A stretch of 64,000 nucleotides of DNA from Betaproteobacteria bacterium (GCA_032123655.1 JAQBEY010000120.1:2-64001), one strand, 5' to 3'; positions 7,028-53,093 are shown, numbered from the stretch's first letter. Made by a program: numbers and translations. The notes: generated from the sequence alone by a model not told the origin.

Positions 7028-7038
7028 GAATACGGAAC

Positions 7039-7550: not shown

Positions 7551-7565
7551 CGGGTCACTCAGGAA
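7551..7565. repeat. 15-bp direct repeat copy B (cgggtcactcaggaa)
   Basis: Identical to 6425-6439; together the two copies bracket the higBA module. Confidence 0.7.
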
Positions 7566-7647
7566 CCGATGGATGTCGATAGATCTCGAAAGGTCACTTT
7601 TCATCGAATCGCCCGCAAACCCGCGCCAATGCTGGTGCCTGACAGGT

Positions 7648-7670
7648 TGACGGTAAAAATGACGGTAAAA
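7648..7670. repeat. TGACGGTAAAA motif, copies 2 and 3 (12-bp period tandem)
   Basis: tgacggtaaaaa-tgacggtaaaa, in the AT-rich non-coding stretch upstream of the RidA-family gene. Confidence 0.6.
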
Positions 7671-7787
7671 GTTTGTGGAGCAGCGTCCAGTGCCTTGCCG
7701 ATCAACAGCTTAGAAGGCGCGTTGATGATCGAGTGGGAGTGAGTGTCGATGACCGGCCCCGGCGACAGGCGATCCTTCGCGCCCGGC

Positions 7788-8748
<961 letters not shown>

Positions 8749-8803
8749 TGCGGGCTGCAGGCGGTTGCGCAAATCCCCGCGCATGCACGACACTTGGCGA
8801 GCG

Positions 8804-9052
8804 ATGACCCACGTTGAGGCACCTGGCTTCCTGAACACAACCGGCACCGAAGTGCCGCCGTTGGTCGTGCGCCCGCTGACGCCGAATCTCGGCGCGCAGA
8901 TTTCTGGCGTGGATCTGGCGAAGGGTCCGGACGAGGACCTGTTTCGCGCCATCCATCAGTCGTTTTTGCGGCATCAGGTGCTGCTGTTCACGACCGGGGT
9001 GTTGCCTCCCGCCCGCCAGGTCCAGTTCGCCTGGCGCGGCCCCCGCTGGTGA
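8804..9052 (+). pseudogene. TauD/TfdA-family dioxygenase, N-terminal remnant (about 82 codons)
   Basis: ...LVVRPLTPNLGAQISGVDLAKGPDEDLFRAIHQSFLRHQVLLF resembles the N-termini of TauD/TfdA Fe(II)/2-oxoglutarate dioxygenases, which are normally about 280-300 aa. The frame terminates at 9052, overlapping the next gene. Confidence 0.45.
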
Positions 9053-9960
9053 CCTCTGCCATGTTACACGGCTGCGGTATCGGCTTTTACGCGCCGTCGG
9101 GTTTCGCGCTCGATCCCCAGGCAGCCGACCGCGCGGCCGAGCGCCTGCGCGCGCTTGGACATCCAGTGGTCATCGACCCGACCTGTGGCGAGCGCTGGCA
9201 GCGGTTCGCCGCGGCCGACGACGAGCGCCTGGCCGCCGTGCTGCGAATGGCTGGCGACCCGCGCGTTGACCTGGCGATCACGCTGCGCGGCGGCTATGGC
9301 TGGACACGATTGCTGCCGCACCTGGACTTTGGCGCATTGAAGGCCGCGGGCAAGCGCTGGCTGGGTTACAGCGATTTCACGGCGTTTCAACTGGCGGCGT
9401 TGAAGCACGCGGCCATGGTGACGTTCGCGGGGCCCGTCGTCGGCAGCGACTTCGGCGCGCCCGAGCCATCGGCATTCACCATCGAGCATTGTTTCGGCCT
9501 TCTCGGCGCGACGGACTACACCGTCGCCTGCGCGCTTGATGGTCCCGACGTCGAATGCACCGGCATCCTGTGGGGCGGCAACCTCGCCATGGTCGCCCAT
9601 CTTTGTGGAACACCGCATTTTCCGGACATCGAAGGCGGGATACTTTTCGTCGAGGATGTCGGCGAATCGCCATATCGCATCGAGCGGATGCTCTACCAGC
9701 TCCATCATGCGGGCGTACTCGCGCGGCAGCGTGCGGTTCTGCTGGGCCGCTTCACCGAATACGTCCTGTCCGCGAACGATGGCGGCTACGATCTCGACAT
9801 TGCGGTCGCGCAATTGCGCGCGGTCGCTGGCGTGCCGATTTTCACCGGCCTGCCATTCGGCCACGTGCCGGACAAGCTGACGCTGCCGGTGGGTGGCCGT
9901 TGCGCGCTCTCCGTGCGCGGTGGCGCCGCGAGGCTGGCTTTTTCCGACTATGGCGGCTGA
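9049..9960 (+). CDS. ldcA: LD-carboxypeptidase (muramoyltetrapeptide carboxypeptidase family)
   Basis: Peptidase S66 pattern: ...LRGGYGWTRLL..., catalytic-Ser context GYSDFTAF, and FVEDVGESPYRIERML. The start is GTG 9049 or ATG 9061. Confidence 0.8.
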   Translation: MTSAMLHGCGIGFYAPSGFALDPQAADRAAERLRALGHPVVIDPTCGERWQRFAAADDERLAAVLRMAGDPRVDLAITLRGGYGWTRLLPHLDFGALKAAGKRWLGYSDFTAFQLAALKHAAMVTFAGPVVGSDFGAPEPSAFTIEHCFGLLGATDYTVACALDGPDVECTGILWGGNLAMVAHLCGTPHFPDIEGGILFVEDVGESPYRIERMLYQLHHAGVLARQRAVLLGRFTEYVLSANDGGYDLDIAVAQLRAVAGVPIFTGLPFGHVPDKLTLPVGGRCALSVRGGAARLAFSDYGG

Positions 9961-27295: not shown

Positions 27296-28045
27296 CTAGC
27301 TGCCGATCTCGGTCCAGTACTCGTGCTGCGCGGTGTTGACATGCGAGACGCGGTACTCGACCGGAGCTTCGTGGTAGGTCTGGGCGACGCGGCGGATCTG
27401 CAGCAGCGGCGCACCACGCGACACGCTGAGCAGCGGCGCAATCTGCGCGTCGGCGACGACCGCGCGCAGGCGCTCGCTGGTACGGACAACCGAAACGCCG
27501 AATCCTTCCTGGTAGAGGTGATACAGCGTCGATGGCCGGTTGCGAACACGCGACTCGGTGAGGCCTGGAAAGCGGGAGGCGGGCAGCACGATGTCGTCGA
27601 TCATGATCGGCCGGTCGGAAAGGTGGAGCCGGTTGCGAATGCGGAACAGGGGATCGCCGACGGCGATCGACAGGCGCTCGGCGACCACGTGGTCGGCGCG
27701 CGCGCGGGTGAAGGCGATGAACTCGACCTCCGGGTAGGCCTTGGGCCCGGCTTCGGGGACGATGTGGAAAAAATAGAACAGCAGGCGGTCGCGCGTATGG
27801 CTCGCGACATAGGTGCCGCGTCCCTGCTGGCGAATCAGCATGTTCTCGGCGACGAGCTCGTCGATCGCCTTGCGCACGGTGCCGATGCTGATTCCGTAGC
27901 GCTGGGACAGGCGTCGCTCGGCGGGAATGGCTTCCCCGGGCTTCCACTCGCCTTGTGTTAACGCCTCCATCAACTGGCGCCGAATCTCCTTGTACAGCGG
28001 AGTCTGGAGTGGAACTCCGAGGGCGGTGGCGTCGGTCATGGTCAT
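27296..28045 (-). CDS. GntR-family transcriptional regulator (HutC/UTRA subtype)
   Basis: N-terminal wHTH (...PAERRLSQRYGISIGTVRKAIDELV...GRGTYV) and a C-terminal UTRA-like effector domain. It is divergent from the dehydratase cluster. Confidence 0.8.
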   Translation of the reverse strand: MTMTDATALGVPLQTPLYKEIRRQLMEALTQGEWKPGEAIPAERRLSQRYGISIGTVRKAIDELVAENMLIRQQGRGTYVASHTRDRLLFYFFHIVPEAGPKAYPEVEFIAFTRARADHVVAERLSIAVGDPLFRIRNRLHLSDRPIMIDDIVLPASRFPGLTESRVRNRPSTLYHLYQEGFGVSVVRTSERLRAVVADAQIAPLLSVSRGAPLLQIRRVAQTYHEAPVEYRVSHVNTAQHEYWTEIGS

Positions 28046-28131
28046 GGCGTTCCTGCCAGCGGACGCGCGCGGCGCGCGGTCGGGCTGGTACTTTCCAGTC
28101 TAGCCGTGATGCTCAAGTGATGCAAATGATA

Positions 28132-28172
28132 TAGATGATCTAGTTGACTTGAAAGGCGCGGGCGACTAATAT
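28132..28172 (+). promoter_or_regulatory. Candidate sigma-70 promoter with adjacent palindromic operator for the dehydratase cluster
   Basis: Palindrome tagat-g-atcta (28132-28142), then -35 ttgact (28144-28149), a 17-bp spacer and -10 taatat (28167-28172). Four TGAT(G) motifs lie between 28108 and 28139. Confidence 0.4.
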
Positions 28173-28259
28173 GGTCCTCACGCGATCGACGCCACACGTG
28201 ATCCTGCCCGCAGCCGTGTCGCTGGTCGTTCCCTCAAGGCCTTTCCCGGAGTCATTCCC

Positions 28260-28541
28260 ATGATCCATTGCGTTCTCCACGACCCCGACGACTCGGTAGC
28301 GGTCGTAGTCGTCGAAGGCGTTACGGCCGGTTCGACGCTCACCGGTCTCATCCTCGACGAAAACAGGACCATCACCTTGCCCTGCGTGCAGGACATCCCG
28401 CTCGGCCACAAGGTTGCCCTGAAAGACCTTTCGGTCGGCGACACGGTGATCAAGTACGGCATCGACATCGGCAAGGTGGTGCAGCCGATCGCCTGTGGCC
28501 AGCACGCCCACGTTCACAACATCAAGACCAAGCGGTGGTGA
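28260..28541 (+). CDS. UxaA-family dehydratase/lyase small subunit (SAF domain; SuyA-like size)
   Basis: 93-aa SAF-domain protein (...[24 protein letters not shown]....I..G.HVH.HN) resembling the N-terminal domain of altronate/galactarate dehydratases. Confidence 0.75.
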
Positions 28542-28582
28542 GCGGCGCCCTCGCCCAACCATCGTCACCGCGAAAGCAAATC

Positions 28583-29749
28583 ATGACCATGCAAAATAAA
28601 TTCTGGGGTTACCGCCGCGAGAATGGCCGGGTGGGTGTGCGCAATCACGTGATCATCCTGCCGGTGGACGATCTGGCCAACGCGGCCTGCGAGGCGGTCG
28701 CCCACAACATCAAGGGGACGCTCGCCATTCCTCATCCCTACGGACGGCTGCAGTTCGGCGCCGACCTCGACCTGCACTTCCGCACGCTGATCGGCACGGG
28801 CAGCAATCCGAACGTCGCCGCCGTCATCGTGATCGGCATCGAGGAGCAATGGACCAAAAAAGTCGTCGACGGCATCGCTGCCACCGGGAAGCCGGTCGTG
28901 GGCTTCGGCATCGAGCTGCACGGCGACCACGACACGATCATGCGTGCATCCAAGGCGGCCAAGGAATTCGTGCAGGCGGCGAGCGAGCAGCACCGGGTCG
29001 AGTGCGACCTCAAGGAACTCTGGGTTTCGACCAAGTGCGGCGAGTCCGACACGACATCCGGCTGTGGCTCCAACCCGACGGTGGGTGACGCGTTCGACAA
29101 GCTCTATGCGGCGGGCTGCACGCTGGTGTTCGGCGAGACGACCGAACTGACCGGCGGCGAGCAGATCGTGGCAGCGCGCTGCCGCGACGACAAGGTGCGC
29201 GCGGAGTTCATGCGCATGTTCGACCGCTACCAGGAGGTGATCAACCGGCACAAGACCAGCGACCTTTCCGATTCGCAGCCGACCAAGGGCAATATTGCCG
29301 GCGGCCTGACGACGATCGAGGAAAAGGCGCTCGGCAATATTCAGAAAATCGGCAAGAAATGCACGGTCGACGGGGTGATCGACAAGGCGGAAACGCCAAC
29401 GCATTCGGGCCTGTGGTTCATGGACAGTTCGTCGGCCGCCGCCGAGATGGTCACGCTGTGCGCAGCCTCCGGCTATGTCGTGCATTTCTTTCCGACCGGG
29501 CAGGGCAATGTCATCGGCAACCCGATCCTGCCGGTGATCAAGATCTGCGCGAATCCGCGAACCGTGCGGACGATGAGCGAGCACGTCGACGTCGATACCT
29601 CGGGGCTGCTGCAGCGCGAAATCACCATGGGGGAGGCCGGAGACAAGCTGCTCGACATGATGTTCCGCACCGCCAACGGGCGGCTGACCGCGGCGGAATC
29701 ACTCGGTCACCGCGAATTCGTGCTGACGCGGCTGTACGAGAGCGCGTGA
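28583..29749 (+). CDS. UxaA-family dehydratase/lyase large subunit (SuyB-like size)
   Basis: 388 aa with [27 protein letters not shown] and PVIKICANP, all motifs of the UxaA C-terminal domain. Confidence 0.8.
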
Positions 29750-29869
29750 CACGACCCGGGTCAACATGACGCGCACGGATTTCGTGACCACGATCGGGCC
29801 GATCGACGGCAGGCAGGGGCGCCGGGATAAGCACTTATTCGCCATCGCGCGCGACCCGCGCGCAAGCTG

Positions 29870-30847
29870 ATGGTGGATGGAGTGTCGCCGGAACCGCTTG
29901 CGCTGCCCGATCTGGCGGCAATCCGGGCCGCGCATGCGCGCATCGGCCCGCATGTCGTTCGAACGCCGGTGCTGCGCAGCGACGCGCTTGATCTTCTTGT
30001 CGGCGCGTCGCTGTACTTCAAGTGCGAAAATCTCCAGAAAGTCGGAGCGTTCAAGGCGCGGGGCGCCGTCAATGCCGTCTTCTGCCTGACCGCCGCCGAC
30101 GCGCGGCACGGCGTGGTGACTCATTCGTCGGGCAACCATGGCGCCGCGCTCGCCTACGCGGCGCAGCGACGCGGCATTCCGGCCTACGTGGTCATGCCGG
30201 AGAACGCAACGAAGATCAAGATTGCGAATGTCGAGGGCTTCGGTGGCACCGTCCGCTTCTGCGCGGCAAATGTGGCGGCTCGTGAGGCGGCCTGCGCGCA
30301 AGTCGCGGGCGAGACCGGAGCGACCCTGGTGCATCCGTTCGACGACGCGCAGGTGATCGCGGGACAGGCGACCGCCGCGCTGGAATTGCTCGAAGCGATG
30401 CCGGACCTCGACATCGTGATCGCGCCCTGCGGCGGCGGTGGACTGCTCTCGGGCACTGCGATTGCGGCCAAGGGCATGGCACCGGCGATTCGTGTATTCG
30501 GTGCGGAGCCGACCAATGCCGGGGACGCGGCGGCAGGCTTTCGTTCGGGCCGGATCGAGCCCCTGCCGTCGGCCGTGACCATCGCCGACGGACTGCGTAC
30601 GACGCTTGCGCCACGGACGTTTCAGGCGATTCGGAATTTCGTCGACGATATCGGCACCTGCAGCGAGGAAGCGATCGTGCGCGCGATGCGCATGACCTGG
30701 GAGCGCTTGAGAATCGTCATCGAACCGTCGTCCGCGGTCCCGCTCGCCTGCCTGCTCGAGCGCAGCCTGGTGGTCGATGGCGCCCGTGTGGGGGTGATAC
30801 TCACCGGCGGCAACGTCGACCTCGATCGCCTGCCGTGGCAGCGTTGA
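29870..30847 (+). CDS. PLP-dependent threonine/serine dehydratase-serine racemase family enzyme
   Basis: PLP-lysine motif FKCENLQKVGAFKARGA, HSSGNHG, and the glycine loop PCGGGGLLSG (fold-type II). Confidence 0.8.
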   Translation: MVDGVSPEPLALPDLAAIRAAHARIGPHVVRTPVLRSDALDLLVGASLYFKCENLQKVGAFKARGAVNAVFCLTAADARHGVVTHSSGNHGAALAYAAQRRGIPAYVVMPENATKIKIANVEGFGGTVRFCAANVAAREAACAQVAGETGATLVHPFDDAQVIAGQATAALELLEAMPDLDIVIAPCGGGGLLSGTAIAAKGMAPAIRVFGAEPTNAGDAAAGFRSGRIEPLPSAVTIADGLRTTLAPRTFQAIRNFVDDIGTCSEEAIVRAMRMTWERLRIVIEPSSAVPLACLLERSLVVDGARVGVILTGGNVDLDRLPWQR

Positions 30848-30934
30848 TTCCGGCCAGCCGGCCGTTCGTCGACGGATGGCTCGTGCGTCGCGCGGGCATT
30901 GCGCGGGCCCTACCCATCCAGGAAACCATTTTCA

Positions 30935-31864
30935 ATGCACATCCTCATCACTGAGTTCATGGACGCCGCCGCCGTGGCGACGCTCGAGGGGGACTTCGCC
31001 GTCGCCTACGATCGCGATCTGGTCGACCGTCACGACGAGTTGAAGGCACGCATGGCAACCGCCGATGCGCTCATCGTGCGCAACCGGACGCAGGTCGACG
31101 TCGATCTGCTCGCCGCGGCGCCCCGATTGAAGGTCGTCGGCCGCCTCGGGGTGGGACTCGACAACATCGATACCACCGCCTGCGCCGCGCGCGGCATCGA
31201 GGTGATCCCGGCGACGGGTGCCAACGCGCTGGCCGTCGCGGAATATGTGATCGGCACGGCAATGCTGCTGTTGCGCGGTGTCTACCAGTCGAGCAGCAAG
31301 GTGGCGGAAGGCGGTTGGCCGCGCGCAGCGCTGTCCGACGGCCGCGAAATCGCGGGCAAGGTGCTTGGCGTGGTCGGTTTCGGGGGCATAGGTCGCCTCG
31401 CCGGCCGGCTGGGACGCGCGTTGGGCATGCGGGTCATCGGACATGACCCTCAATTGCAGGAGACTTCGTCCATCTGGGTCGCAGAGCAGACTCGCGGCCT
31501 GCCGCTCGATGCGGTATTCGCGCAGAGCGACGTGGTAACGGTGCACGTGCCATTGACCCGGGAAACGCGCGGTCTGGTCGGCGCGGCGCGGCTCGCCCGG
31601 ATGAAGCCGGACGCGATACTGATCAATACCGCGCGTGGCGGTGTGGTTGACGAGGCGGAGGTGGCCGCGGCGCTGCGCGCCGGGAAGTTGGGCGGTGCCG
31701 CGCTAGATGTGTTCGAACGCGAGCCCTTGCCTGCCGGATCGCCACTGGCCGATTGTCCGAATCTGTTGCTCACGCCGCATATCGCCGGCGTGACGCGAGA
31801 ATCGAACGAGCGCGTCTCGTCGCTGGTGGCGGACAAGGTTGCCGCGGCGTTGCGCGCCCGCTGA
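30935..31864 (+). CDS. D-isomer-specific 2-hydroxyacid dehydrogenase family (PGDH-like)
   Basis: NAD-binding GVVGFGGIGRL, ...VHVPLTRETRGL..., INTARGGVVDE and TPHIAG motifs. Confidence 0.8.
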   Translation: MHILITEFMDAAAVATLEGDFAVAYDRDLVDRHDELKARMATADALIVRNRTQVDVDLLAAAPRLKVVGRLGVGLDNIDTTACAARGIEVIPATGANALAVAEYVIGTAMLLLRGVYQSSSKVAEGGWPRAALSDGREIAGKVLGVVGFGGIGRLAGRLGRALGMRVIGHDPQLQETSSIWVAEQTRGLPLDAVFAQSDVVTVHVPLTRETRGLVGAARLARMKPDAILINTARGGVVDEAEVAAALRAGKLGGAALDVFEREPLPAGSPLADCPNLLLTPHIAGVTRESNERVSSLVADKVAAALRAR

Positions 31865-31876
31865 AGGAGATCGGCG

Positions 31877-32872
31877 ATGCCTACCTATACCCTTGATGCG
31901 GCGACCGCTCTGGTCGAACGCGTGCTGGTGGCAGCTGGCGCCAGCGCGGCGATGGCGCGCAGTACCGCGCGTGCTCTGGTCGATGCCGAGGCGCAGGGCC
32001 TGCCATCGCATGGCCTGTCGCGCGTCTCCCAATATGCGACCCATCTGCGCAATGGGCGCGCCGACGGCGCGGCGACTCCGGTCGTGGTGCGCAGCCGCGG
32101 CGGGGCGGTATTGGTCGATGCGGGTTGCGGTCTGGCATTCCCGGCGTGCGCATTTGCCGTCACGGAGGCGCTGGCACGGGCGCGCGAATTCGGCGTGGCC
32201 TTCGCCGGCGTCTGCAACAGCCACCACTTTGGCGTCGCCGCCTACCACCTGCGCCCCGTCGCCGAGGCCGGCATGGTCGGTCTCGCCTTCGGCAACTCGC
32301 CGGCGGCGATGTCCGCCGCCGGCGGCAAGCGGCCGCTGTTTGGAACCAACCCGATCGCCGCAGTGTTTCCACGGCGGGACGGCGCGCCGCTGGCGATCGA
32401 CCTGTCGCTGTCCGAGGTCGCCCGCGGCAAGCTGATGGTTGCCGCCAAGGAAGGTCGTTCGATTCCGACGGGCTGGGCGCTCGACCGCGACGGCAACCCC
32501 ACCACCGATCCCGCCGCCGGGCTCGAGGGGTCGATGTTGCCGGTGGGCGGCACCAAGGGCGCGATGCTGGCGCTGATCGTCGAGTTGCTCGCCTGCGCGC
32601 TCACGGGAGCTGCCATGGGCTTCGAGGCCGACTCCTTCTTCGTCGACGCGGGCAACCGGCCGCGCATCGGCCAGGCGTTCCTGGTCGTCGATCCGGATGC
32701 GCTCGCCGGTCGTGCAGCCTATCTGGAACGCGTCGAGACGCTGATTGCGGCCATGATCGAGGATCCGCAGGTGCGCTTGCCGGGATACCGGCGCGACGCG
32801 CTGGCGCACCAGGCGGCGGCAACGGGCATCACGATTTCCCCGGCGCTGGCGGATTACCTGGAAGCGTTCTGA
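31877..32872 (+). CDS. Ldh2-family (malate/L-lactate/sulfolactate dehydrogenase type 2) oxidoreductase
   Basis: ...GLPSHGLSRV..., NSHHFG, FGTNPIA, and SLSEVARGKL are typical of the Ldh_2 family (AllD/ComC/DpkA relatives). Confidence 0.8.
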   Translation: MPTYTLDAATALVERVLVAAGASAAMARSTARALVDAEAQGLPSHGLSRVSQYATHLRNGRADGAATPVVVRSRGGAVLVDAGCGLAFPACAFAVTEALARAREFGVAFAGVCNSHHFGVAAYHLRPVAEAGMVGLAFGNSPAAMSAAGGKRPLFGTNPIAAVFPRRDGAPLAIDLSLSEVARGKLMVAAKEGRSIPTGWALDRDGNPTTDPAAGLEGSMLPVGGTKGAMLALIVELLACALTGAAMGFEADSFFVDAGNRPRIGQAFLVVDPDALAGRAAYLERVETLIAAMIEDPQVRLPGYRRDALAHQAAATGITISPALADYLEAF

Positions 32873-32941: not shown

Positions 32942-33748
32942 CTAACCTGCCACGGCGGCGATGGCTTCGCGCAGCGGATTGAACAGTCCGGGCGCGGCGG
33001 CGATCACCTCATTCGCGCGCAGGAAATCCGTACCGCCGGCGAAATCGCCGACGCGGCCTCCTGCCTCCTTGACCAGTAGCGCGCCGGCGGCGACGTCCCA
33101 GGGATTCAGGCTCATCACCCAGAATCCGTCAAGACGCCCCGCCGCCAGATGCGCCAGGTCGAGAGCGCCCGCACCGGCGCGGCGCAGGCCGGCGCATTGT
33201 CCGTTCAGCGCCTGGAAGATCGGCAGGTAGGTTGCCAGTTTCGGACTTGCCCGCTCCGGAAATACCGTGCCGACGAGCGCCTCGCCGAGGCGCAGGCAGG
33301 CCGATACGCGCAGAGGCGTGTCGTTGCACTGCGCACCCTTGCCCTTGGCGGCCGTGAACAGTTCATCGTGCACCGGATCGAGCACCACCGCGTGCGTCAC
33401 CTCGGCACCGTGCGCCAGCGCGATCGACACGGCGTAATATGGAAAGCGGTGGGCGAAATTCACGGCGCCGTCGATCGGGTCCACGATCCATTTGTAGCCG
33501 CCAGCGTCGCGGGCGCCCTTGATGTGCCCGGATTCCTCGCCCAGAATCGCGTGCTCGGGAAACGCCGCGCGGATGGTCGCCACGATGGCGTCCTCCGCTT
33601 CCATTTCCGCCGTGCTTGCGATATTGCCGTGCTCCTTCGAAAACGAAGGCAGACGCTTGAGGTCGCGCGCGGCGTCGGTGAGGACGCTCGCCGCGCGCCG
33701 TGCCGCGCGTATCGCCACGGCAATGACCGGATCGCTGTTCGAACTCAT
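32942..33748 (-). CDS. Inositol monophosphatase-family protein (SuhB/CysQ-like)
   Basis: Motifs LGEESG, WIVDPIDGAVNF and WDVAAG. The ATG overlaps the stop of the upstream MBL gene (ATGA). Confidence 0.8.
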   Translation of the reverse strand: MSSNSDPVIAVAIRAARRAASVLTDAARDLKRLPSFSKEHGNIASTAEMEAEDAIVATIRAAFPEHAILGEESGHIKGARDAGGYKWIVDPIDGAVNFAHRFPYYAVSIALAHGAEVTHAVVLDPVHDELFTAAKGKGAQCNDTPLRVSACLRLGEALVGTVFPERASPKLATYLPIFQALNGQCAGLRRAGAGALDLAHLAAGRLDGFWVMSLNPWDVAAGALLVKEAGGRVGDFAGGTDFLRANEVIAAAPGLFNPLREAIAAVAG

Positions 33749-34740
33749 GGTTTGCCCGACTTGAGCGCCTCCTGCTCCATCAGCAGGTAGGTGCCGTAGG
33801 CGTTGATCCGATTGGCCTGCGCGAACGCCGGCAGGCTGCGGAAGCGCGACCAGTCGACCGTGGCGTAGGCCTCGTCGAAGGTCTGGAGGTCTTCGACTGC
33901 CCGGCCCATCGAGGCGCGCAGGAAGAGGAGGTAATCGCGGGTAAGCACCAGGTCTCGCCCCACGTCGGTCGACGCGGGACCATGACCGGGCACCACGACC
34001 ACCGGCCGCAGCGCGATCATCTTGTCCAGGGCCTTCAGCCAGCCCGCGCTATCGGCATTGCCGACAAAGGGCACGCGGCCCGAGAAGACCAGGTCTCCGG
34101 CAAAGAGCAATCGATCCTCCTCGACGTACAGCATCAGATCTTCCGGCGTATGCGCGCCTTCGGAATACACGATTCTGAACGTGAGGCCCCCGAGGCGAAA
34201 GCTGGTGTCGCCGTCGAGCCAGAGGTCCGGCGGGACGACGACGGTCTGGTCATCGACCCATGGGAAGAGGGCGACGCGGCGCTGGGCCAGACGCGCCGCA
34301 GCCTCTTCTGAGTTGAGATAGTGATTCGCCTTGCGGTGCGCCCATATTTCGGCGCCCGTTGCCTTGAGCGCCTGCAAGCCGTAGACGTGGTCGGCATGAT
34401 AGTGGCCGACCACGATGCGGCGAATGGGTTGCGGCGTCACGCGGCGAATCGCCTCGAGCATGGCCTGGCCCAGCACCGGCGTGGCCAGCGCGTCGTAGAC
34501 GACGACGCCATCGTCGGTGACCACGAACCCCGCGTTGGACATGAATCCCTTGTTCTGCGCGCTGGCCATGCCGGCCTCGCCCTGGAAAAACCAGCCGTGC
34601 GCGGAGACCTGGCGGGGCGTGAGGACGATGCGGTCGTCGGCTTTGGCGCCAGCGGCGCAGACGGATGCACCGAGCACGGCAGCGACCAGGAAGCGCGTAA
34701 CGGTCATGGCGGCGACGAGTTGCTTGATCATGGCCGACAT
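33745..34740 (-). CDS. Secreted MBL-fold metallo-hydrolase
   Basis: Signal peptide (...VLGASVCAAGAKA), HxHxDH motif (GHYHADH) and downstream ...VVVPGHG. The start is placed at 34740, next to the upstream gene's stop. Confidence 0.75.
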   Translation of the reverse strand: MSAMIKQLVAAMTVTRFLVAAVLGASVCAAGAKADDRIVLTPRQVSAHGWFFQGEAGMASAQNKGFMSNAGFVVTDDGVVVYDALATPVLGQAMLEAIRRVTPQPIRRIVVGHYHADHVYGLQALKATGAEIWAHRKANHYLNSEEAAARLAQRRVALFPWVDDQTVVVPPDLWLDGDTSFRLGGLTFRIVYSEGAHTPEDLMLYVEEDRLLFAGDLVFSGRVPFVGNADSAGWLKALDKMIALRPVVVVPGHGPASTDVGRDLVLTRDYLLFLRASMGRAVEDLQTFDEAYATVDWSRFRSLPAFAQANRINAYGTYLLMEQEALKSGKP

Positions 34741-34741
34741 T

Positions 34742-35899
34742 CTAATCCGCCGCCGCGGTATCCGCCGCGCCGCCACCCGGTGCCACGTACTTCGCCATGA
34801 AGCGACGATCGATCCAGTCCTTCCAACGCCAGACCCAGTCGCCTTCCAGCATCAGGGGCCCGCGCGAGGCGATGGCATGCTTGCCTCCGGTCGAGATCAA
34901 AGCCAACGCGTCGCGCTGCGGTACATAGGCGAGCAGCGGTTGGTCGAGCGCCGCGCGACGCAGGTTCGCCGCCAATGGCGGACCCTGGCGTACGGCGTAG
35001 ACACCCGATTTCGGCCGTGGCTGTTCGCTCTGCGAGGCGCAATCGCCTGCGGCGAAAACGAAGGGGTGCGAGACCGACCGCAGATACGCGTCGATCTCCA
35101 CGAAGCCGCGCGCGTCGCATACGAGTCCGGAGGCGGCGAGCCAGGGCTGCGCGCTGGCCGACGTCGCCCAGATGATGCGGTCCATGGCGATCCGGCGCTG
35201 GCGGGCGACGACCACAATGCCTGGTTCGACGGCCCTCGCGGCGCTGTCGAAATGCAGCACGACACCGCGCTCGACCAGAATGCGGCCCAGCCGCCCGCGT
35301 ACCCTGGACGGATGCTGCGGCAGCAGTTGCGACTGGTCGGTGACAAGCGCGAAGCGCGGCGCGCCGGCGCCAAGCGTCGCCTGCAGCCGATGCTGCATCG
35401 CCAGCAGGATCTCGACGCCGCCCGCGCCCCCGCCGACGATTCCGATGGTATGCCGGCGACGTTCCGCGGCTTCGGCCTGGATACGCGTCCAGGCGTCGAG
35501 GAAGGCGGCCACGGGCTTGACCGCGAGCGCATGTTCCCGGGCGCCGGGGATGGCGGTATCGGGCGTGGAGCCGATGTCGATCGAAACGAAATCGAAGGCA
35601 AGGCGTCGACCGGTGGCGAGTGTCACCGTCCTATGGTGCAGCTCGATGGCCTTCACGCTGTCGGCGACGTAGTTGGCGCCTGCCCAGCGCGCGAGCGGTG
35701 GCAGCGCGATGTGCGACTGCTCGAGCGTGTAATGGCCGGCAACGAGTCCCGGCAGCATTCCGGAGTAGGCGGTCAGCGCATCGGGTGAAACCAGCGTCAG
35801 CGCGATGGCGGGATCAGGGCGCAGCGCGAAACGGCGCAGCACTTCGACGTGGCTGTGGCCACCACCGATCAGCAGGAGGCGCGTGGGGCGGGATTCCAT
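34742..35899 (-). CDS. FAD-dependent pyridine nucleotide-disulfide oxidoreductase family (NDH-2/SQR superfamily; resembles the N-terminal-to-SelD group as I recall it)
   Basis: Two Rossmann motifs ([10 protein letters not shown] and [12 protein letters not shown]) in a 385-aa protein. The subfamily assignment is from memory of TIGR03169-like proteins, not from a search. Confidence 0.65.
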
Positions 35900-46536: not shown

Positions 46537-47181
46537 TCAGGACGCAGCGGCGAGGGTCGACAGCGCGCGCCAGCGCTCGAGATCCGCTGGTTCGTCGACG
46601 TCCCATGACAACTGCAGGTCGGCGCAACCAATGCCGGCCGTCGCAAATGCGGCTCGGGTGTCGGCATGCGCATTCGCGCTGCTGAAACGCACACCCGGAA
46701 ACTGCAGTGGTCGGCGCGCACCGACAAGCACAAAACCCCCATCGACCGCCGGCCCCAGCACGGCATCGTGCCCGGCGAGCGCGTCGCCTGCCTGTGCCAG
46801 ATACGCAACGTCCAGACAGGGACAGTCGGTGCCGATGAGCAGCACGCCGCCGGAGCGGGTCAGCGCTGCGGCAAGCGCGTTGGTCATGCGCTCGCCCAGA
46901 TCCCCACCCTGCTGGCGATACCGGGTCGCGCCGAAACGCGTGGCCAGTTCGCGGAAGTAGTCGCTGTCGGCATCCGGTGCGCACCACAACTCGATCCGGC
47001 CGACCACTTCGGCGATGCGCGCTCGCGCCGCCTGCGCCAGCGTCACTTCGGTGAGTTCGCGGTAGATCGCCGCGGCTTCGACGTCGCCCAGCGCCAGCGC
47101 GAGGCGGGTTTTCACGGTGCCTGGAACGGGTTCCTTCGCGAAAACGACCAGCGCGGGCGGAGACCTGGGCGCGACCGTCAT
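46537..47181 (-). CDS. DUF2064 / TIGR04282-like nucleotidyltransferase-fold protein ('arsenosugar biosynthesis glycosyltransferase' in RefSeq naming)
   Basis: ALVVFAKEPVPGTVKTRLA...GGDLGERM...LIGTDCP...GPAVDGGFVLVG is the DUF2064 pattern. The ATG overlaps the upstream stop (ATGA at 47178-47181). Confidence 0.7.
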   Translation of the reverse strand: MTVAPRSPPALVVFAKEPVPGTVKTRLALALGDVEAAAIYRELTEVTLAQAARARIAEVVGRIELWCAPDADSDYFRELATRFGATRYRQQGGDLGERMTNALAAALTRSGGVLLIGTDCPCLDVAYLAQAGDALAGHDAVLGPAVDGGFVLVGARRPLQFPGVRFSSANAHADTRAAFATAGIGCADLQLSWDVDEPADLERWRALSTLAAAS

Positions 47182-47852
47182 CGATAGTGCCGGGCAAGCT
47201 GCGCGGGGTCGGCGCCCAGCGCGTAGGCAAGGCGCAGGCGCCACATGGTGAGGATGGTCTTCCACGGGCCGTGTGCTTCCCAGCGGCGGCCGGAAGTCTC
47301 GATGCGGGAAGCGAGGCAGGCGGGACGGCCGCCCCGCCGTTTCAGCGTCCGCGAAAGCTGCACGTCCTCCATCAGGGGGATCGCCGCATAGCCACCCACC
47401 AGGTCGAACAGCGTTCGGGTGACGAAAATTCCCTGGTCGCCCGTGGCGATTCCGGTCAGTCTTGAGCGCAGGTTCATCATTGCGGCGACGAGCTTGAGGA
47501 TGCGCGGGCGTCCTCGAATGGTCACGTCGAAGCGCCCCCAACCGGCACCGGCGCGCAAGGCGTCGTCGATCGCCGCCGCCGCCGCTTCCGGCAGACGCGA
47601 GTCCGCGTGCAGGAACAGCAGCACGTCTCCGCGGGCCGCGCCGGCGCCGGCGTTCATCTGGACGGCGCGGCCGCGCGGCGCCACCAGAACCCGGTCGGCC
47701 CGGCCCTGCGCGACCTCCTGGGTGGCATCACGGCTGCCGCCGTCGACGACAAGAACTTCGTGCCCGGCTGCGCGCAATGGCGCGAGCGCTGCAAGCGCGC
47801 CGATGAGCGTCGCGCCTTCGTCAAGCGTCGGGATGATGATCGAGAGCTTCAT
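47178..47852 (-). CDS. Family-2 glycosyltransferase, TIGR04283-like
   Basis: LSIIIPTLDE...VVDGGSRD...RGRAVQMNAGAGAARGDVLLFLHADS...TGDQGIFV...LMEDVQLS. Confidence 0.7.
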   Translation of the reverse strand: MKLSIIIPTLDEGATLIGALAALAPLRAAGHEVLVVDGGSRDATQEVAQGRADRVLVAPRGRAVQMNAGAGAARGDVLLFLHADSRLPEAAAAAIDDALRAGAGWGRFDVTIRGRPRILKLVAAMMNLRSRLTGIATGDQGIFVTRTLFDLVGGYAAIPLMEDVQLSRTLKRRGGRPACLASRIETSGRRWEAHGPWKTILTMWRLRLAYALGADPAQLARHYR

Positions 47853-47901
47853 CAGGGACAGGCGTCGCCGGCGCGGGTGGGAAGCAGGTGAACGGAAGGC
47901 A

Positions 47902-48597
47902 TCAGCGAATATCCGCAAAGAAGGCGCGCGGAGGTTCGCGTCCTGCGCGCAAGCATAGCAAAATGGCCACCACGCGCCAGAGACTGCGCCAGACACCCAT
48001 TTGCTCGAATTTCCGCGAACTGGTAATCACCTCGAGCGACAGGAACGAGGGCGGCGCTATGTCGCGCAGCCGCTGTGACAGCGCGATGTCCTCGGCGATG
48101 CATTCGGGGAAACCGCCCACGCGCCGGAACGCGGCGGCGCTCACGAACATCGCCTGGTCGCCATAGAAAGTCTGCATCCTGGAACAGCGCCAGTTGTGCA
48201 AGGCGGAAATGGTGCGCAGGCGCCAGTCGTCGCCGGAGAAGCGGTGCCGGAAGCCGCCGTAGACGAAGCCTGGCGTACTTGCCGCCGCGCCGATGGCCGC
48301 CAGCGCGCCGTCGGGAAGCGCGGTGTCGGCATGCAGAAAAAGCAGCACGTCGCCCGTGGCCGCGGCCGCGCCGGCGTTCATCTGCGTCGCCCGGCCGCGC
48401 CGCGCGGTGACCATGCGGATCCATTCGATGCGACGCAGCAGGGCGGGACCAGTGTCGGTGCTGCCGCCATCCACCGCGATCACCTCGACGGCCATTGCGC
48501 GTTGACGCTCGCGTTCGAGACGCGCCAGCGTCGAGGGTAGTGCGCGCGCTTCGTTGAGATAGGGGATGACGACGGAAATCTTCACCGTCTCGTCCAC
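47902..48597 (-). CDS. Family-2 glycosyltransferase, paralog of the downstream TIGR04283-like gene
   Basis: ISVVIPYLNE...AVDGGSTD...RGRATQMNAGAAAATGDVLLFLHADT...YGDQAMFV...IAEDIALS shares the long QMNAGA..A.GDVLLFLHAD block with 47178-47852. Confidence 0.7.
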   Translation of the reverse strand: MDETVKISVVIPYLNEARALPSTLARLERERQRAMAVEVIAVDGGSTDTGPALLRRIEWIRMVTARRGRATQMNAGAAAATGDVLLFLHADTALPDGALAAIGAAASTPGFVYGGFRHRFSGDDWRLRTISALHNWRCSRMQTFYGDQAMFVSAAAFRRVGGFPECIAEDIALSQRLRDIAPPSFLSLEVITSSRKFEQMGVWRSLWRVVAILLCLRAGREPPRAFFADIR

Positions 48598-48789
48598 GGT
48601 TCGAGGCGCGCGTCGAGTCGGGCGCCGATGGTTTCCTGAGCGATGCCGAAATAGCGCGGTGCCGGCGCTCCGGATTCGATCATCCGTTGTGTGCTCGCCC
48701 GATGACGTCGCAGGTCGCCGCGCTCCGGAGGACGTCGGATGGTCGATCGCACGGCAAAGTCTTCGCAGACGTCGTGCATGACCGTGTGG

Positions 48790-49614
48790 TCATTGGCCCC
48801 GTGGTGGCGTGCCGTTGAGCGCCCAGTCGTAGTCGATCCATTCGATCCTGTAAGTGTCCGCGGTGAGTCCGCGGGCTACTTCCGGATCGGTCACGTAGCG
48901 CGCAACGTACTTCTGCACCGAACCTGCAGGGCCGCTGAAATCTTCGTCGAACCATTTGAAGATTTCCGACAAATTTGCCAGCTTGCCGACCTTGTCGAAG
49001 CGATTGCGCGATGGGTCGTTGACGAACCGGCGCGCCTGTTCGTCCAGTTGCGTATCGAGCCGCGCCGGCGCATAGGCTTCGCTGCGCAGCAAGGGGCAGG
49101 ACTTCGACGCGCAGATGATCGCAAAGTGGATGCGTGACTCACCCAACGGACGGATGATCTTGTGCTCGAGATCGTAAAGATTGACGCTCTGGCCGTTCAG
49201 CGACCAGTCCTTGAGCTTGAAATAGCGGGCGCGACCGAAGAACGTGGATGGCGACAGGCCTTCGAGGATGCCGGCGATGGCCAGCGCGTTGTAGGCGTTG
49301 ATGTAATAGACCAGCGTGTCCGCCTTGGTATCGAGCTTGACCGGCCTGGCGAGGCTTTCCACGTATTTGCCGAAAGCCGGGCTCGCCTCGAAGCCCGGAT
49401 AGTTCACCTGGCCATTCCTGACGTTGGCCTTGAGCAGCGCGTCGAAGGGCGCGTGGTCGACACCCTGCGCCCTTGCCGCGGTGATACCCGGCGCGAGGGT
49501 CAGCACCAGCAGCGCGAGCAGCAGTCGTGCGAGTCGATGCCCGATCCGCGCGGCGGCCGCGGCAGGCCTGGTAGGAATAATGTTCATTGCCACCAGAAAT
49601 GGTCGGGAAATCAC
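48790..49614 (-). CDS. DUF547-domain protein with signal peptide
   Basis: ...YINAYNALAI...IHFAIICASKSCPLL...FKWF..DF... is the DUF547 pattern. The ATG at 49614 overlaps the TVP38 stop (ATGA), and ATG 49587 is an alternative start. Confidence 0.7.
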   Translation of the reverse strand: MISRPFLVAMNIIPTRPAAAAARIGHRLARLLLALLVLTLAPGITAARAQGVDHAPFDALLKANVRNGQVNYPGFEASPAFGKYVESLARPVKLDTKADTLVYYINAYNALAIAGILEGLSPSTFFGRARYFKLKDWSLNGQSVNLYDLEHKIIRPLGESRIHFAIICASKSCPLLRSEAYAPARLDTQLDEQARRFVNDPSRNRFDKVGKLANLSEIFKWFDEDFSGPAGSVQKYVARYVTDPEVARGLTADTYRIEWIDYDWALNGTPPRGQ

Positions 49615-50336
49615 GGCGAAGGATTACGCCGGGACTTCCATTTCCTGATCCCGACCGGCACCAGCGCGAAGGCCCCCAACAGCGCGAATGCGCCCAGCGT
49701 CTCGGCGGAGACCAGCCCTTGCAGCGAGTCGATGCTGCCCAGCGTCTGGCCAAGGTTCACGAAAACGAAGGAGCCTGGAATGATGCCGATCAGCGTGCCG
49801 ATGACAAAGGTCCGTAACGGTACGGATGTGAACGCGGGTGCCAGGTTCACCAGAAAAAACGGAAACAGCGGAACCAGGCGCAGGAACAACAGGTAGTTGA
49901 ACGCATTCTCGGAAAACCCGGCGTTGATCCTGTCGCCCAGCGGACCCAAACGCTTGCGCGCCGCCTCCGCGAACACGTAACGGGCGGCCAGGAAGATGAT
50001 CGTCGCGCCGACGGTCGCCGCGACCACGACCAGTGCCGTGCCCACCCAGCGGCCGAAGACGAAGCCGGTCGCCAGCGACAGAACCAGCGCGCCGGGCAGG
50101 CTGAAGGCCACCGACCCGGCGTAGATCAGGAAGGCGATGACCAGCGCGGCGGCAAAATGCGCTTCGGTGTAGTCGAGCAATGCCGCGCGATGCGCCTTGA
50201 TGTTGGCGAGCGTGAGGACGTGATGGCCGTCGAGCGCGAAAAACGCGATGACGACGCCGACAAACAGCGCCAGGATCACGAATTTGAGCCAGCGCCGATC
50301 GGCGGGCGGTCGTGCGCCTTCAGTCGGGGCACCCAC
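49611..50336 (-). CDS. TVP38/TMEM64 (DedA-related, SNARE-associated) membrane protein
   Basis: ...PGALVLSLATGFVFG...FNYLLFLRLVPLFPFFLVNL...GIIPG is a typical TVP38 sequence. The GTG start lies 1 nt after the upstream stop. Confidence 0.75.
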   Translation of the reverse strand: MGAPTEGARPPADRRWLKFVILALFVGVVIAFFALDGHHVLTLANIKAHRAALLDYTEAHFAAALVIAFLIYAGSVAFSLPGALVLSLATGFVFGRWVGTALVVVAATVGATIIFLAARYVFAEAARKRLGPLGDRINAGFSENAFNYLLFLRLVPLFPFFLVNLAPAFTSVPLRTFVIGTLIGIIPGSFVFVNLGQTLGSIDSLQGLVSAETLGAFALLGAFALVPVGIRKWKSRRNPSP

Positions 50337-50337
50337 C

Positions 50338-51768
50338 CTAGTTTCCCTGCAAGCGGAAAATCCGCTTGATCCAGGTCTTGGCGGTGGGGGTCAGTCCCTC
50401 CTTCATCCGCTGATCCGCGACCCGCCGGTTGATCGATGCGAAGGTCGGATAGGTGTGGATGGTTCCCGAGATGTCCGCGGCCTTCATGCCCTTGGTGAGC
50501 GCCAGCGCATATTCGGCAATCAGTTCGCCGGCATGCGCACCGACGATCGCCGCGCCGAGCAATTTTCCTCTTGGATCGGTGACTATCTTGGCCAGGCCCT
50601 CGGACTCGCCTTCGGCCAGCGCGCGGTCGATTTCATCGAACGCGAAGCGATAGACGCGGTGATCGATGCCCTGCTGCTGCGCCTCGGTTTCCGACAGCCC
50701 GACCCGCGCGAGTTCGGGGTCGGTGAAGGTGCACCAGGGAATCACCCTGGTCGGTGCTGCCCACCACATGCGGAACAGTGCCTGGCGCAGCACGATGCCG
50801 GCATGGTGCTCGGCAACGTGGGTGAATTGCAGTCCGCCGGCGGCGTCGCCGATCACGTAGATGTGCGATTGCGAGGAGCGCAGTTTGGCGTCGACGACGA
50901 TGCGCCCGCGTTCGACCGCGACTCCGGCTGCTTCGAGCCCCAACCCTTCGATATTGGCGCGGCGTCCGGCGGCGAGCAGCAGATGCGTGGCCTCCAGCCT
51001 TTGCTCGCTGCCGTCCTTGCCTTTGATCGTCAGCGCGATCGCGCCCTTGCTGCCCTCGGCCCGGGTGATCGCCGCGTCGAAGTGATAGCGGATGCCCTCG
51101 GCCACCAGCTGGCGGTGCACCACCGCGGCGAGATCCGGGTCCTCGCGCGGCAGGATGGCCGGCGCCATGTCGATCACCGTGACTTCACTGCCCAGGCGGC
51201 GGAAGGCCTGCGCCATTTCGCTGCCGATCGGGCCGCTGCCGACGACCAGCAGCGAGGGCACCGGCTCGCGCAGGTCGAAGATGGTTTCGTTGGTGAGGTA
51301 GGGCACCGTGTCGATGCCCGGGATCGGCGGCACCGCGGCGCGCGAACCGGTGGCGATGACGAAGGACTTGCCGCGCAGCTTTCGTCCGCCGACTTCGAAG
51401 CAGTCCGGGCCGGTGAAATGGCCGTCGCCGAATGTCACGTCCACGCCCAGGCCGCGAAAACGTTCGGGACTGTCGTTGGGCTCGATGGTCGCAATGACTG
51501 CGCGCACGCGTTCCATGACCCGGGCGAGGTCTGGATGCGGTTCGGCCGGCGTCAGTGCCCAGCGATCGGCGTGGCGCATTTCGTAGGCGATCCGCGCCGA
51601 CTTGATCAGCGTCTTGGACGGCACGCAGCCGGTCCACAGGCAGTCGCCGCCCAGCCGGTGCTTTTCCACCAGCGCCACCTTGGCGCCCAGTGCGCTGCCG
51701 CCGGCCGCAACGACCAGGCCACCGGAGCCGCCGCCGATGACGACGATGTCGAATTCGGGTTGGGACAA
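50338..51768 (-). CDS. Flavoprotein disulfide reductase family (mercuric reductase/dihydrolipoamide dehydrogenase-like)
   Basis: FDIVVIGGGSGG...redox-active GGDCLWTGCVPSK...second Rossmann motif VVGSGPIGSEMA...C-terminal dimerisation domain TYPT. The proposed start is TTG 51768, 5 nt after GGAGG. The tracked ORF's 63 extra N-terminal codons have no family counterpart. Confidence 0.75.
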   Translation of the reverse strand: MSQPEFDIVVIGGGSGGLVVAAGGSALGAKVALVEKHRLGGDCLWTGCVPSKTLIKSARIAYEMRHADRWALTPAEPHPDLARVMERVRAVIATIEPNDSPERFRGLGVDVTFGDGHFTGPDCFEVGGRKLRGKSFVIATGSRAAVPPIPGIDTVPYLTNETIFDLREPVPSLLVVGSGPIGSEMAQAFRRLGSEVTVIDMAPAILPREDPDLAAVVHRQLVAEGIRYHFDAAITRAEGSKGAIALTIKGKDGSEQRLEATHLLLAAGRRANIEGLGLEAAGVAVERGRIVVDAKLRSSQSHIYVIGDAAGGLQFTHVAEHHAGIVLRQALFRMWWAAPTRVIPWCTFTDPELARVGLSETEAQQQGIDHRVYRFAFDEIDRALAEGESEGLAKIVTDPRGKLLGAAIVGAHAGELIAEYALALTKGMKAADISGTIHTYPTFASINRRVADQRMKEGLTPTAKTWIKRIFRLQGN

Positions 51769-51998
51769 GAAAACCTCCGTGATTGGACCCGCGAGGACAC
51801 GGCCGCACGCCCCAACCACGCGGGGCCGTGGGATTGTGTCGGACTGTTCTCCGGTGATCTTACAGAGAGTTCGGAGTTCGTACAGCGCGGCGCATGCATT
51901 CGACTTGCCTTGGTCATAGGGCCAGGCTGCGAGCGAATGCGCAGTGTCCATCACCAAAAGGCATCAGGCATACTGGAGTTTTTCGCCCCGATGTACCC

Positions 51999-53093
51999 AT
52001 GGACACGCCCAAGGTCAGCGTAATCGTTCGCAGCATCGGGCGTCCGACGCTGGCGTTGGCGCTGGCATCGATTGCCGCGCAGGGCTATCCGTTGGCCGAG
52101 GTCGTCGTGGTCGCGGCCACGGGCAACGCCCATCCGCCCGTACCTGACGCCTGCGGTCCGTATCCGATCCGCGAAGTGCGCCGCGCCGACCGCTTGCCGC
52201 GGCCGCAGGCCGCGGATGCGGGCATCCGCGCCGCCACCGGCGACTGGATCACCTTCCTCGACGACGATGACGAGGTGCTTCCCGGACACCTTGCGGGGCT
52301 GGTCACCAGTGCTGCAAATCAGCCCGGGGCGCGCGCCGTCAACGGCCGCGCATTGGCCACGTTTCGCATTGGCGACATGGAAGTCTGGGGCCAGCGTTTC
52401 GCCCTGGCGGAACTCTACCAGCGCAACTTCGTGCATCTTTCCACGCTGCTCTTTCATCGCTCGCTGCTGGAGGCGGGGATTGCGTTCGATCCCGAACTGC
52501 CGATGCACGAGGATTGGGATTTCGCCCTGCAGATCGCGCAGCACACGGCCTTTGCCGATTGGCCGCAGGCTACTTTTCGGTGGAATGCCGACGCCGGGAC
52601 CTCGGGCGCCGGTGGCGGCGAGAACAGCGACGACGCGGCCTTCGCGAAACACCGAGACTACGTCTACGCGAAATGGGCCGCCGACCGCGACGCGCTGGTG
52701 GAGCGCAGCCTCGCGCTTCTGCAGCGCGCGTCGGCAGCGGCGGGCGCCGGTCGGCTGGACGAGGCCGCGGCCGCCGCGACCGAGGTGCTAACCTTCAGCC
52801 AGAACGACCCATTTGCGCTCAATCTGCTGGCGCTGGTCGCAACCCGACAGGGCGACCGCGCGTCAGCGCTTCGCCAGCAGGCAACCGCGGTCGAGGTGCG
52901 TCCTGGCGACCCCGATCTGCACTACAACCTCGCGCTGGCGCGGCACGCGGCGGGCGACATCGACGGTGCCCGGACGGCGCTGAACGAGGCGCTCAAGCTC
53001 GATCCGGCGCATGCGCGCGCGGCGGCGAAGTTGCGCCAGTTCGCTCCGGCGCAGGTCTTCCCGCTGGCATCCGGGATTCCTCCGCAACGCTGA
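51999..53093 (+). CDS. Family-2 glycosyltransferase fused to C-terminal TPR repeats
   Basis: VSVIVRSIGRP...DWITFLDDDDE (DxD)...then TPR-like ...NLLALVATRQGDRASALRQQATAVEVRPGDPDLHYNLALARHAAGDIDGARTALNEALKLDP. Confidence 0.65.
   Translation: MDTPKVSVIVRSIGRPTLALALASIAAQGYPLAEVVVVAATGNAHPPVPDACGPYPIREVRRADRLPRPQAADAGIRAATGDWITFLDDDDEVLPGHLAGLVTSAANQPGARAVNGRALATFRIGDMEVWGQRFALAELYQRNFVHLSTLLFHRSLLEAGIAFDPELPMHEDWDFALQIAQHTAFADWPQATFRWNADAGTSGAGGGENSDDAAFAKHRDYVYAKWAADRDALVERSLALLQRASAAAGAGRLDEAAAAATEVLTFSQNDPFALNLLALVATRQGDRASALRQQATAVEVRPGDPDLHYNLALARHAAGDIDGARTALNEALKLDPAHARAAAKLRQFAPAQVFPLASGIPPQR

Follow-up and report, generated by a model that had tools for sequence, protein, structure and literature searches.

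We analyzed a stretch of 64,000 nucleotides from a Betaproteobacteria bacterium (GCA_032123655.1 JAQBEY010000120.1:2-64001), hereafter the window, in which positions 27,296 to 32,872 hold a GntR-type regulator gene and five divergent genes that very probably form an operon for the desulfonation of sulfolactate, with a gene for a pyridoxal 5'-phosphate (PLP) enzyme embedded in it. The source is a metagenome-assembled genome (3.7 Mb, 96% complete) whose closest relatives are labelled Casimicrobiaceae. The regulator gene, suyR-like and divergent from the operon, occupies 27296-28045 on the minus strand and encodes a GntR winged helix and a UTRA effector domain of the HutC subfamily (PF00392, PF07702). 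The genes on the plus strand are suyA (28260-28541), assigned by its alignment to TIGR03248 and by orthology to the 93-residue small subunit of sulfolactate sulfo-lyase; suyB (28583-29749; PF04295, E 1e-34; PF20629, E 1.5e-86), for the 388-residue large subunit; an accessory gene (29870-30847; PF00291, E 6e-75) for a PLP enzyme of fold-type II in the serine-racemase/beta-hydroxyaspartate-dehydratase subfamily; an slcC-like gene (30935-31864; PF00389, PF02826) for a D-isomer-specific 2-hydroxyacid dehydrogenase, a candidate (S)-sulfolactate dehydrogenase; and a comC-like gene (31877-32872; PF02615, E 2.5e-99) for an Ldh2-family dehydrogenase, a candidate (R)-sulfolactate dehydrogenase.

These are the six open reading frames of a preliminary description made from the DNA alone; all are present where that description placed them, with families that are unambiguous by Pfam. 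The start of slcC is more likely the ATG at 30935, which is preceded by an AGGAAA ribosome-binding site, than the TTG at 30899 that would give the longest reading frame, and comC, which has a good ribosome-binding site (GGAG), follows the slcC stop after 12 nucleotides (nt). The five plus-strand genes are thus separated by 41, 120, 87 (or 51, with the upstream slcC start) and 12 nt, and no terminator-like site was found on the plus strand of the operon. The small subunit had been described as a SAF protein, of which the size and the position hold and the domain does not: the protein has zero Pfam matches, SAF included, and it looks SAF-like solely because it aligns (35.7 bits) to residues 6-76, in the N-terminal part, of the galactarate dehydratase model TIGR03248. 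The published SuyA likewise has no Pfam domain (PMC12421959, Table S1/S2).

In a tblastn search of plasmid records, the large subunit of the split UxaA-type enzyme was found to be 82.7% identical to SuyB of a Cupriavidus pinatubonensis locus with the order LacI-hpsN-hpsO-MFS-hpsP-suyA-suyB (MFS, major facilitator superfamily transporter), and this order in strain JMP134 is that of the published hpsRNOUPsuyAB cluster for 2,3-dihydroxypropane-1-sulfonate (DHPS; PMC11382572). It is also 65% identical to SuyB of Paracoccus versutus, where suyB is accompanied by a GntR regulator, a gene of the sulfate-exporter family, hps-like genes and a sulfite oxidase, while the small subunit is 65% identical to its counterpart in C. 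pinatubonensis and 52% to that in P. versutus. Copies of SuyB in Methylobacterium and Rhodococcus (61-69% identity) adjoin TauE, a molybdopterin oxidoreductase, an aldehyde dehydrogenase and the same pair of dehydrogenases as in the window. In a maximum-likelihood tree, the window protein falls, together with all proteins from sulfonate contexts, inside a clade with 100/100 support on a stem of length 1.0, from which Escherichia coli UxaA and GarD, a fused paralogue in the same genome and homologues from Bacillus sp. F19, Haloferax and Variovorax are excluded. The two-subunit form of SuyAB (EC 4.4.1.24), in which the small subunit has ~9-10 kDa and the large one, from the UxaA/GarD superfamily, ~42 kDa, is found here as proteins of 93 and 388 residues encoded side by side. 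SuyAB was reportedly first purified from Paracoccus pantotrophus NKNCYSA.

Split enzymes of this superfamily also serve in sugar-acid metabolism, and it could be argued that the window enzyme is a dehydratase of hydroxy acids such as tartrate or a sugar acid, with the PLP enzyme, which resembles the beta-hydroxyaspartate dehydratase BhcB, funnelling hydroxy-dicarboxylates or hydroxyaspartate to oxaloacetate and no sulfonate pathway being present. A heteromeric L-fuconate dehydratase of the split UxaA type has been assigned from gene context by Watanabe et al. (PMC6336799), with which the L-fucose-type cluster of Bacillus sp. F19 fits. However, split enzymes of the sugar-acid type, including that of Bacillus sp. 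F19, are just 38-40% identical to the window large subunit, against 83% for SuyB of the DHPS cluster. The residues Leu31 and Ile86 of the window protein correspond to Cys in UxaA, GarD and the split enzyme of the L-fucose cluster and are Leu/Ile across the whole SuyB clade; sulfolactate sulfo-lyase has been reported as an exception that lacks part of the conserved Cys set of UxaA and GarD (PMC6336799). Orthologues of the window enzyme are moreover surrounded by hps genes, sulfonate-type ATP-binding cassette (ABC) importers and SuyZ/TauE exporters. We therefore regard a hydroxy-acid dehydratase as extremely improbable, and a route from hydroxy-dicarboxylates, tartrate or hydroxyaspartate to oxaloacetate, which had been our initial guess, was dropped on the results for identity, tree and context. 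The phylogeny proposed in the preliminary description as a means of refuting its SuyAB-like lyase places the large subunit with SuyB and not with the sugar-acid dehydratases, and identity, tree and Cys pattern alike bear that prediction out: by homology, the window enzyme is an orthologue of SuyAB.

Two further observations concern the distribution of this enzyme family. SuyB is present in 56 of the 301 genomes sampled from the order (G205, an unpublished genome, is part of this tally). Across many of the order's families it keeps 79-90% identity, while the neighbouring regulator and dehydrogenases fall to 35-70%, which suggests that SuyB is under strong constraint, has spread horizontally, or both. 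Separately, on plasmid 3 of Variovorax sp. PBL-E5 (3729-9283), a split UxaA enzyme is encoded together with a GntR regulator, a hydroxyacid dehydrogenase, a binding protein of a tripartite tricarboxylate transporter (TTT) and an Ldh2 dehydrogenase. This uncharacterised look-alike resembles a sulfolactate module in its make-up, but its large subunit is 38% identical and lies outside the SuyB clade.

In addition to the lyase, the remaining genes of the operon, with the exception of the PLP gene, recur together in other bacteria. Genes 256-260 of P. wurundjeri strain Merri encode a regulator with GntR and UTRA domains, SuyA without a Pfam domain, SuyB, SlcC (PF00389/PF02826) and ComC (PF02615); the abundance of these proteins rises on a sulfosugar, and their families match those of biochemically validated enzymes of Chromohalobacter salexigens, among them the Ldh2-family ComC, cited as a validated (R)-sulfolactate dehydrogenase (PMC12421959). 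The five corresponding proteins of the window have the same Pfam make-up as the P. wurundjeri proteins and as the C. salexigens enzymes, the likeness to the latter being by family only, and the order GntR, SuyA, SuyB, D-2-hydroxyacid dehydrogenase, Ldh2 was found again in seven of nine other loci from Pseudomonadota. The slcC-like protein, which has both expected domains and lies beside suyAB and comC, is 56-62% identical to the protein encoded next after suyB in Sinorhizobium mexicanum, Methylobacterium oryzae and a further genome of the Burkholderiales (locus L146). Similarly, the Ldh2 protein is encoded by the last gene of the suyAB-slcC module, as expected for ComC, and is 46-69% identical to the Ldh2 proteins encoded at the end of such modules in other taxa. 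Since the same families stand in the same order as in the published module, the combination of regulator, SuyA, SuyB, SlcC and ComC is a characterised one, contrary to the preliminary description, which did not recognise it as such. Compared to the module of C. salexigens DSM 3043 and P. wurundjeri, the window shares the type of regulator, the split lyase, the pair of dehydrogenases and their order, but differs in having a BhcB-like PLP gene between suyB and slcC and in having neither a TTT or ABC transporter nor a TauE/SuyZ exporter at the locus.

The regulator, with its N-terminal GntR helix-turn-helix, C-terminal UTRA domain and position divergent from suyA, has the architecture of SuyR, and it is 35-54% identical to the products of GntR genes beside suyAB in Paracoccus versutus, Caballeronia and other Burkholderiales; the published regulator of P. 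wurundjeri has the same Pfam make-up (PMC12421959). Between the regulator gene and suyA lies a conserved operator/promoter region (28114-28172, plus strand), in which the element CAAGTGATGCAAATGATATAGATGATCTAGTTGACT ends in the -35 box TTGACT (28144-28149), followed after 17 nt by the -10 box TAATAT (28167-28172). This is the only sigma-70-like site between 27200 and 33100. The 35-nt element ending in the -35 box is present as the same block or as close variants upstream of suyA in related loci, where the flanks have diverged, and we infer that SuyR binds there. The regulator would probably repress transcription from this conserved repeat element, which overlaps the -35 box, until a sulfonate effector is bound.

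On these grounds we consider it very likely that the window holds a SuyR-controlled operon that desulfonates sulfolactate, taking (R,S)-sulfolactate to pyruvate and sulfite, with the PLP enzyme as a lineage-specific accessory. By orthology, SuyAB, which depends on Fe(II) and is a split enzyme of the UxaA family, would cleave (R)-sulfolactate to pyruvate and sulfite, the SlcC-like enzyme would oxidise (S)-sulfolactate to 3-sulfopyruvate, and the ComC-like Ldh2 enzyme would reduce sulfopyruvate to the (R)-form accepted by SuyAB, so that the pair would act as a racemase. A ComC-like Ldh2 enzyme and a pair of dehydrogenases of opposite stereospecificity that racemises sulfolactate had been suggested in the preliminary description, and the orthology of the module supports that suggestion. 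The same description held that the substrate could not be read from the sequence; orthology points to sulfolactate with good confidence. The alternative of a hydroxy-amino-acid route, which it also named, applies to the BhcB-like PLP gene and not to the rest of the operon.

Several points weigh against this assignment. All functions in the operon are assigned by orthology and context, and the dehydrogenases have been matched to SlcC and ComC of C. salexigens at the level of the family. The Ldh2 protein scores 213.5 bits against the 500-bit cut-off of the L-sulfolactate dehydrogenase model NF040650, though this is its best NCBIfam model, and among relatives of solved structure the imine reductase DpkA comes first (208 bits), with archaeal ComC scoring lower (164 bits). 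Moreover, neither a sulfite/sulfate exporter (SuyZ/TauE) nor a sulfite dehydrogenase was found at the window locus. Since several true suy loci also have none, such genes are common but not obligatory; elsewhere in the genome are three genes of the TauE family and one molybdopterin oxidoreductase (Oxidored_molyb). The likeness of the Ldh2 protein to DpkA also raises the possibility that the PLP and Ldh2 enzymes form a pair like BhcB and BhcD, in which an amino acid is dehydrated or desulfonated to an imine that the DpkA-like Ldh2 enzyme then reduces. In the beta-hydroxyaspartate cycle, BhcB makes iminosuccinate, which is subsequently reduced by a reductase, as reflected in annotated bhc clusters, and in about a dozen loci the order is suyB-PLP-Ldh2 with no D-2-hydroxyacid dehydrogenase. 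However, orthologues of the Ldh2 protein (46-69%) end PLP-free suyAB-slcC modules in many taxa, which indicates a role independent of the PLP enzyme. In C. salexigens, ComC, also of the Ldh2 family, is cited as a validated (R)-sulfolactate dehydrogenase (PMC12421959). We consider such a pairing very unlikely.

The genome context is consistent with internal formation of the substrate of the sulfolactate operon. Another contig of the same genome (C121) carries a DHPS cluster (47000-56100; locus L087, 7034-16121) in which a LacI gene (hpsR) is divergent from hpsN, hpsO and hpsP (65, 54 and 58% identity), followed by a tripartite ATP-independent periplasmic (TRAP) transport system, DctP/DctQ/DctM, and then an MFS transporter. 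With the hps genes and transporters of this cluster, DHPS could be imported and oxidised to (R)-sulfolactate in the cell, and this may be why the operon itself has no transporter. The genes hpsR, hpsN, hpsO and hpsP are thus common to this genome and the hpsRNOUP-suyAB cluster of C. pinatubonensis, but here the hps genes are on another contig with the TRAP and MFS transporters, and suyAB is joined to slcC, comC and the PLP gene. A second hpsN-like gene of this genome lies on contig C142 (22000-33200; locus L088, 4088-15130); it is 73% identical to HpsN of C. pinatubonensis, closer than the copy on C121, and is accompanied by a glucose-methanol-choline (GMC) oxidoreductase, a TRAP binding protein, a LacI regulator, another Ldh2 gene and an HpcH-type aldolase. 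This locus may represent a further route for a sulfonate or an amino alcohol.

To place the operon among its relatives, we compared 80 loci with SuyB at least 87% identical to that of the window. The commonest order is SuyA, SuyB, substrate-binding protein, PLP enzyme, ATPase, permease, D-2-hydroxyacid dehydrogenase, Ldh2; in most operons the transporter genes, for an ABC importer of the sulfonate type (SsuA/TauA, NitT/TauT), are interleaved with the others in this way, and other versions have hpsN-hpsO-hpsP or hpsO ahead of the PLP gene. The statement in the preliminary description that no transporter is present is accordingly right for the window locus and does not extend to most of its relatives. 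The compact form of the window, without the three transporter genes, occurs in about 10 loci. In the SuyB tree these branch among loci that carry the transporter, which suggests the loss of two stretches flanking the PLP gene. No orthologue of the binding protein of the relatives' importer was found in the genome of the window with that protein as query. In some relatives (L005, L010 and L018), a second copy of suyAB lies within ~40 kb of the PLP-bearing locus; it has no PLP gene and is followed by an unidentified 1.4-kb gene and an aldehyde dehydrogenase, with a SuyZ-like exporter in L018, and these second loci may serve for the entry of sulfolactaldehyde. Several studies have metagenome runs, of sediment and aquatic origin, that contain DNA nearly identical to that of the window; none of the listed runs is an RNA run.

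Upstream, the operon is bordered by a housekeeping run, bamA-lpxD...lpxB-rnhB, and downstream by a convergent operon (32942-35899, minus strand) with inositol monophosphatase, metallo-beta-lactamase and flavoprotein genes. In one relative (L025), a flavoprotein gene (Pyr_redox_2) likewise takes the place of this operon downstream of the suy genes, to which no functional link was found.

The sole component of the operon that remains unexplained is the PLP gene, whose product is BhcB-like but not BhcB. It is 52-58% identical over its full length to annotated BhcB, the enzyme of the beta-hydroxyaspartate cycle of Paracoccus denitrificans and relatives, and belongs to the same fold-type II subfamily, with the catalytic residues that the two have in common intact: Lys62 in FKARG, the SSGNH loop at residues 86-90 and the pocket residue Arg138, equivalent to Arg135 of human serine racemase, in addition to a GGGG motif at 188-191. 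However, it scores 427 bits against the 550-bit cut-off of the BhcB model NF045641, the next-best model being that of threo-3-hydroxy-L-aspartate ammonia-lyase; its gene has no adjacent bhcA, bhcC or bhcD; and it differs from BhcB at 13 positions, all of them occupied by BhcB-specific residues in the latter. In the tree, which leaves a four-way split unresolved, it makes up one of the branches and lies outside the BhcB clade (100/100 support); the other three branches are this long-stemmed clade and two clades from other Burkholderiales families, in unrelated contexts.

The association of this gene with sulfonate metabolism is found at two levels. About 64 of the 80 related loci have it within a suy/hps operon. 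Its place there takes five forms: it follows suyB, hpsP or hpsO, it lies between the genes for the binding protein and the ATPase of the ABC importer, or, in the version with hpsNOP, it follows the gene for the ABC binding protein. At the level of genomes, SuyB is present in nine of the 11 genomes of the order sample with an orthologue of the PLP enzyme (at least 57% identity) and in 47 of the other 290; the genomes are related to one another, and this co-occurrence is a count and not a statistical test. Beyond the family the linkage was not found: the PLP gene is absent from 13 plasmid loci or records with SuyB at least 61% identical, and from the suy modules of nine other genomes of Pseudomonadota.

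Four considerations weigh against a role of the PLP enzyme in the pathway. No residues distinguish the suy-linked clade from its relatives in unrelated contexts, and the sequence hence gives no sign of an altered pocket. Two members of the family (G044 and G188) have SuyB and no PLP orthologue. In a genome of the same genus (G230), the PLP gene stands beside genes for a short-chain dehydrogenase/reductase (SDR), a glyoxalase-family protein and an MFS transporter, and suyB is on another contig. Lastly, the loci in which the linkage was observed belong essentially to a single lineage, and it may be due in part to common descent. The G230 locus (L129, 7736-13143) occupies the same spot after lpxB-rnhB and consists of an HpsO-like SDR gene, the PLP orthologue (74% identity), the glyoxalase-family gene and the MFS gene; the stretch behind rnhB is a hot spot of variation.

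A serious rival explanation is that the PLP gene is a passenger in this variable spot, encoding a dehydratase or racemase of a hydroxy amino acid (3-hydroxyaspartate, serine or threonine), with the rest of the operon a standard SuyAB/SlcC/ComC system. We regard this as possible, though well short of probable. The resemblance to BhcB and to threo-3-hydroxy-L-aspartate ammonia-lyase would fit such an enzyme, as would the lack of clade-specific residues, the unrelated contexts of the orthologues in families f51 and f48 and the occurrence of the gene at the same spot without suyAB in G230. The bhcA-like (46%) and bhcC-like (48%) genes of the genome also make a dispersed beta-hydroxyaspartate route conceivable, but they are scattered over separate contigs and the genome gave no convincing bhcD; for these reasons we rejected, as a reading of its own, the idea that the PLP gene supplies the BhcB of such a cycle. 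Against a passenger, the gene has been retained through at least five rearrangements of the operon, often wedged inside the genes of the sulfonate-type importer, it is still there in the window version although the transporter stretches on both sides are gone, and it co-occurs with SuyB at the genome level.

If the PLP enzyme is instead an accessory of the sulfolactate operon, its substrate might be an amino sulfonate. PLP enzymes need an amine, the serine-racemase/BhcB subfamily binds alpha-amino acids, and cysteate is the amino analogue of sulfolactate. Homologues of HpsN are furthermore able to form L-cysteate from L-cysteinolate (PMC12814064). Collectively, these considerations make cysteate the most economical candidate substrate, on which the enzyme might act either as a racemase or as a lyase that forms pyruvate, ammonia and sulfite through beta-elimination; it might thereby add a second entry or exit for C3 sulfonates. 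The known enzyme for this chemistry, CuyA, presumably belongs to the D-cysteine desulfhydrase/1-aminocyclopropane-1-carboxylate deaminase group, and TIGR01275 was accordingly used as its proxy; a search of the whole genome gave nothing above the cut-off, with weak matches on contigs C25 and C55 and none at the PLP gene. CuyA (D-cysteate sulfo-lyase) and CuyB (cysteate racemase) have been described from Bilophila wadsworthia and Ruegeria pomeroyi (PMC11193023). If the proposal is right, CuyA and the window enzyme would have their chemistry in common, a PLP-dependent beta-elimination that frees sulfite from cysteate and leaves pyruvate and ammonia, and both would be encoded in a cluster for C3 sulfonates, but the window enzyme, for which cysteate is a candidate substrate, is of another family, the serine-racemase/BhcB group. 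In the literature searched, we found no relevant report of an enzyme of the serine-racemase or hydroxyaspartate-dehydratase type acting on cysteate. We therefore suggest, tentatively and as a minority possibility, that the PLP enzyme represents a second, unrecognised amino-sulfonate family, a serine-racemase-type cysteate sulfo-lyase or racemase, possibly L-specific, or a cysteinolate lyase.

Among the major currencies of the sulfur cycle are the C3 sulfonates DHPS, sulfolactate, cysteate and cysteinolate, and the window indicates that an uncultured and widespread betaproteobacterial family carries the known SuyAB route for one of them. Its gene cluster can be annotated with confidence as suyR-suyAB-slcC-comC instead of 'UxaA family hydrolase'. 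The SuyAB/SlcC/ComC system is already known, and the lineage-specific PLP gene embedded in it is the only unusual part. CuyA prefers D-cysteate and needs a racemase, although most natural cysteate is expected to be the L-isomer (PMC11193023), and a cysteate enzyme of a new family would bear on this puzzle. If the PLP enzyme has this role, Casimicrobiaceae-like bacteria of sediments and soils would handle both hydroxy- and amino-C3-sulfonates with one operon.

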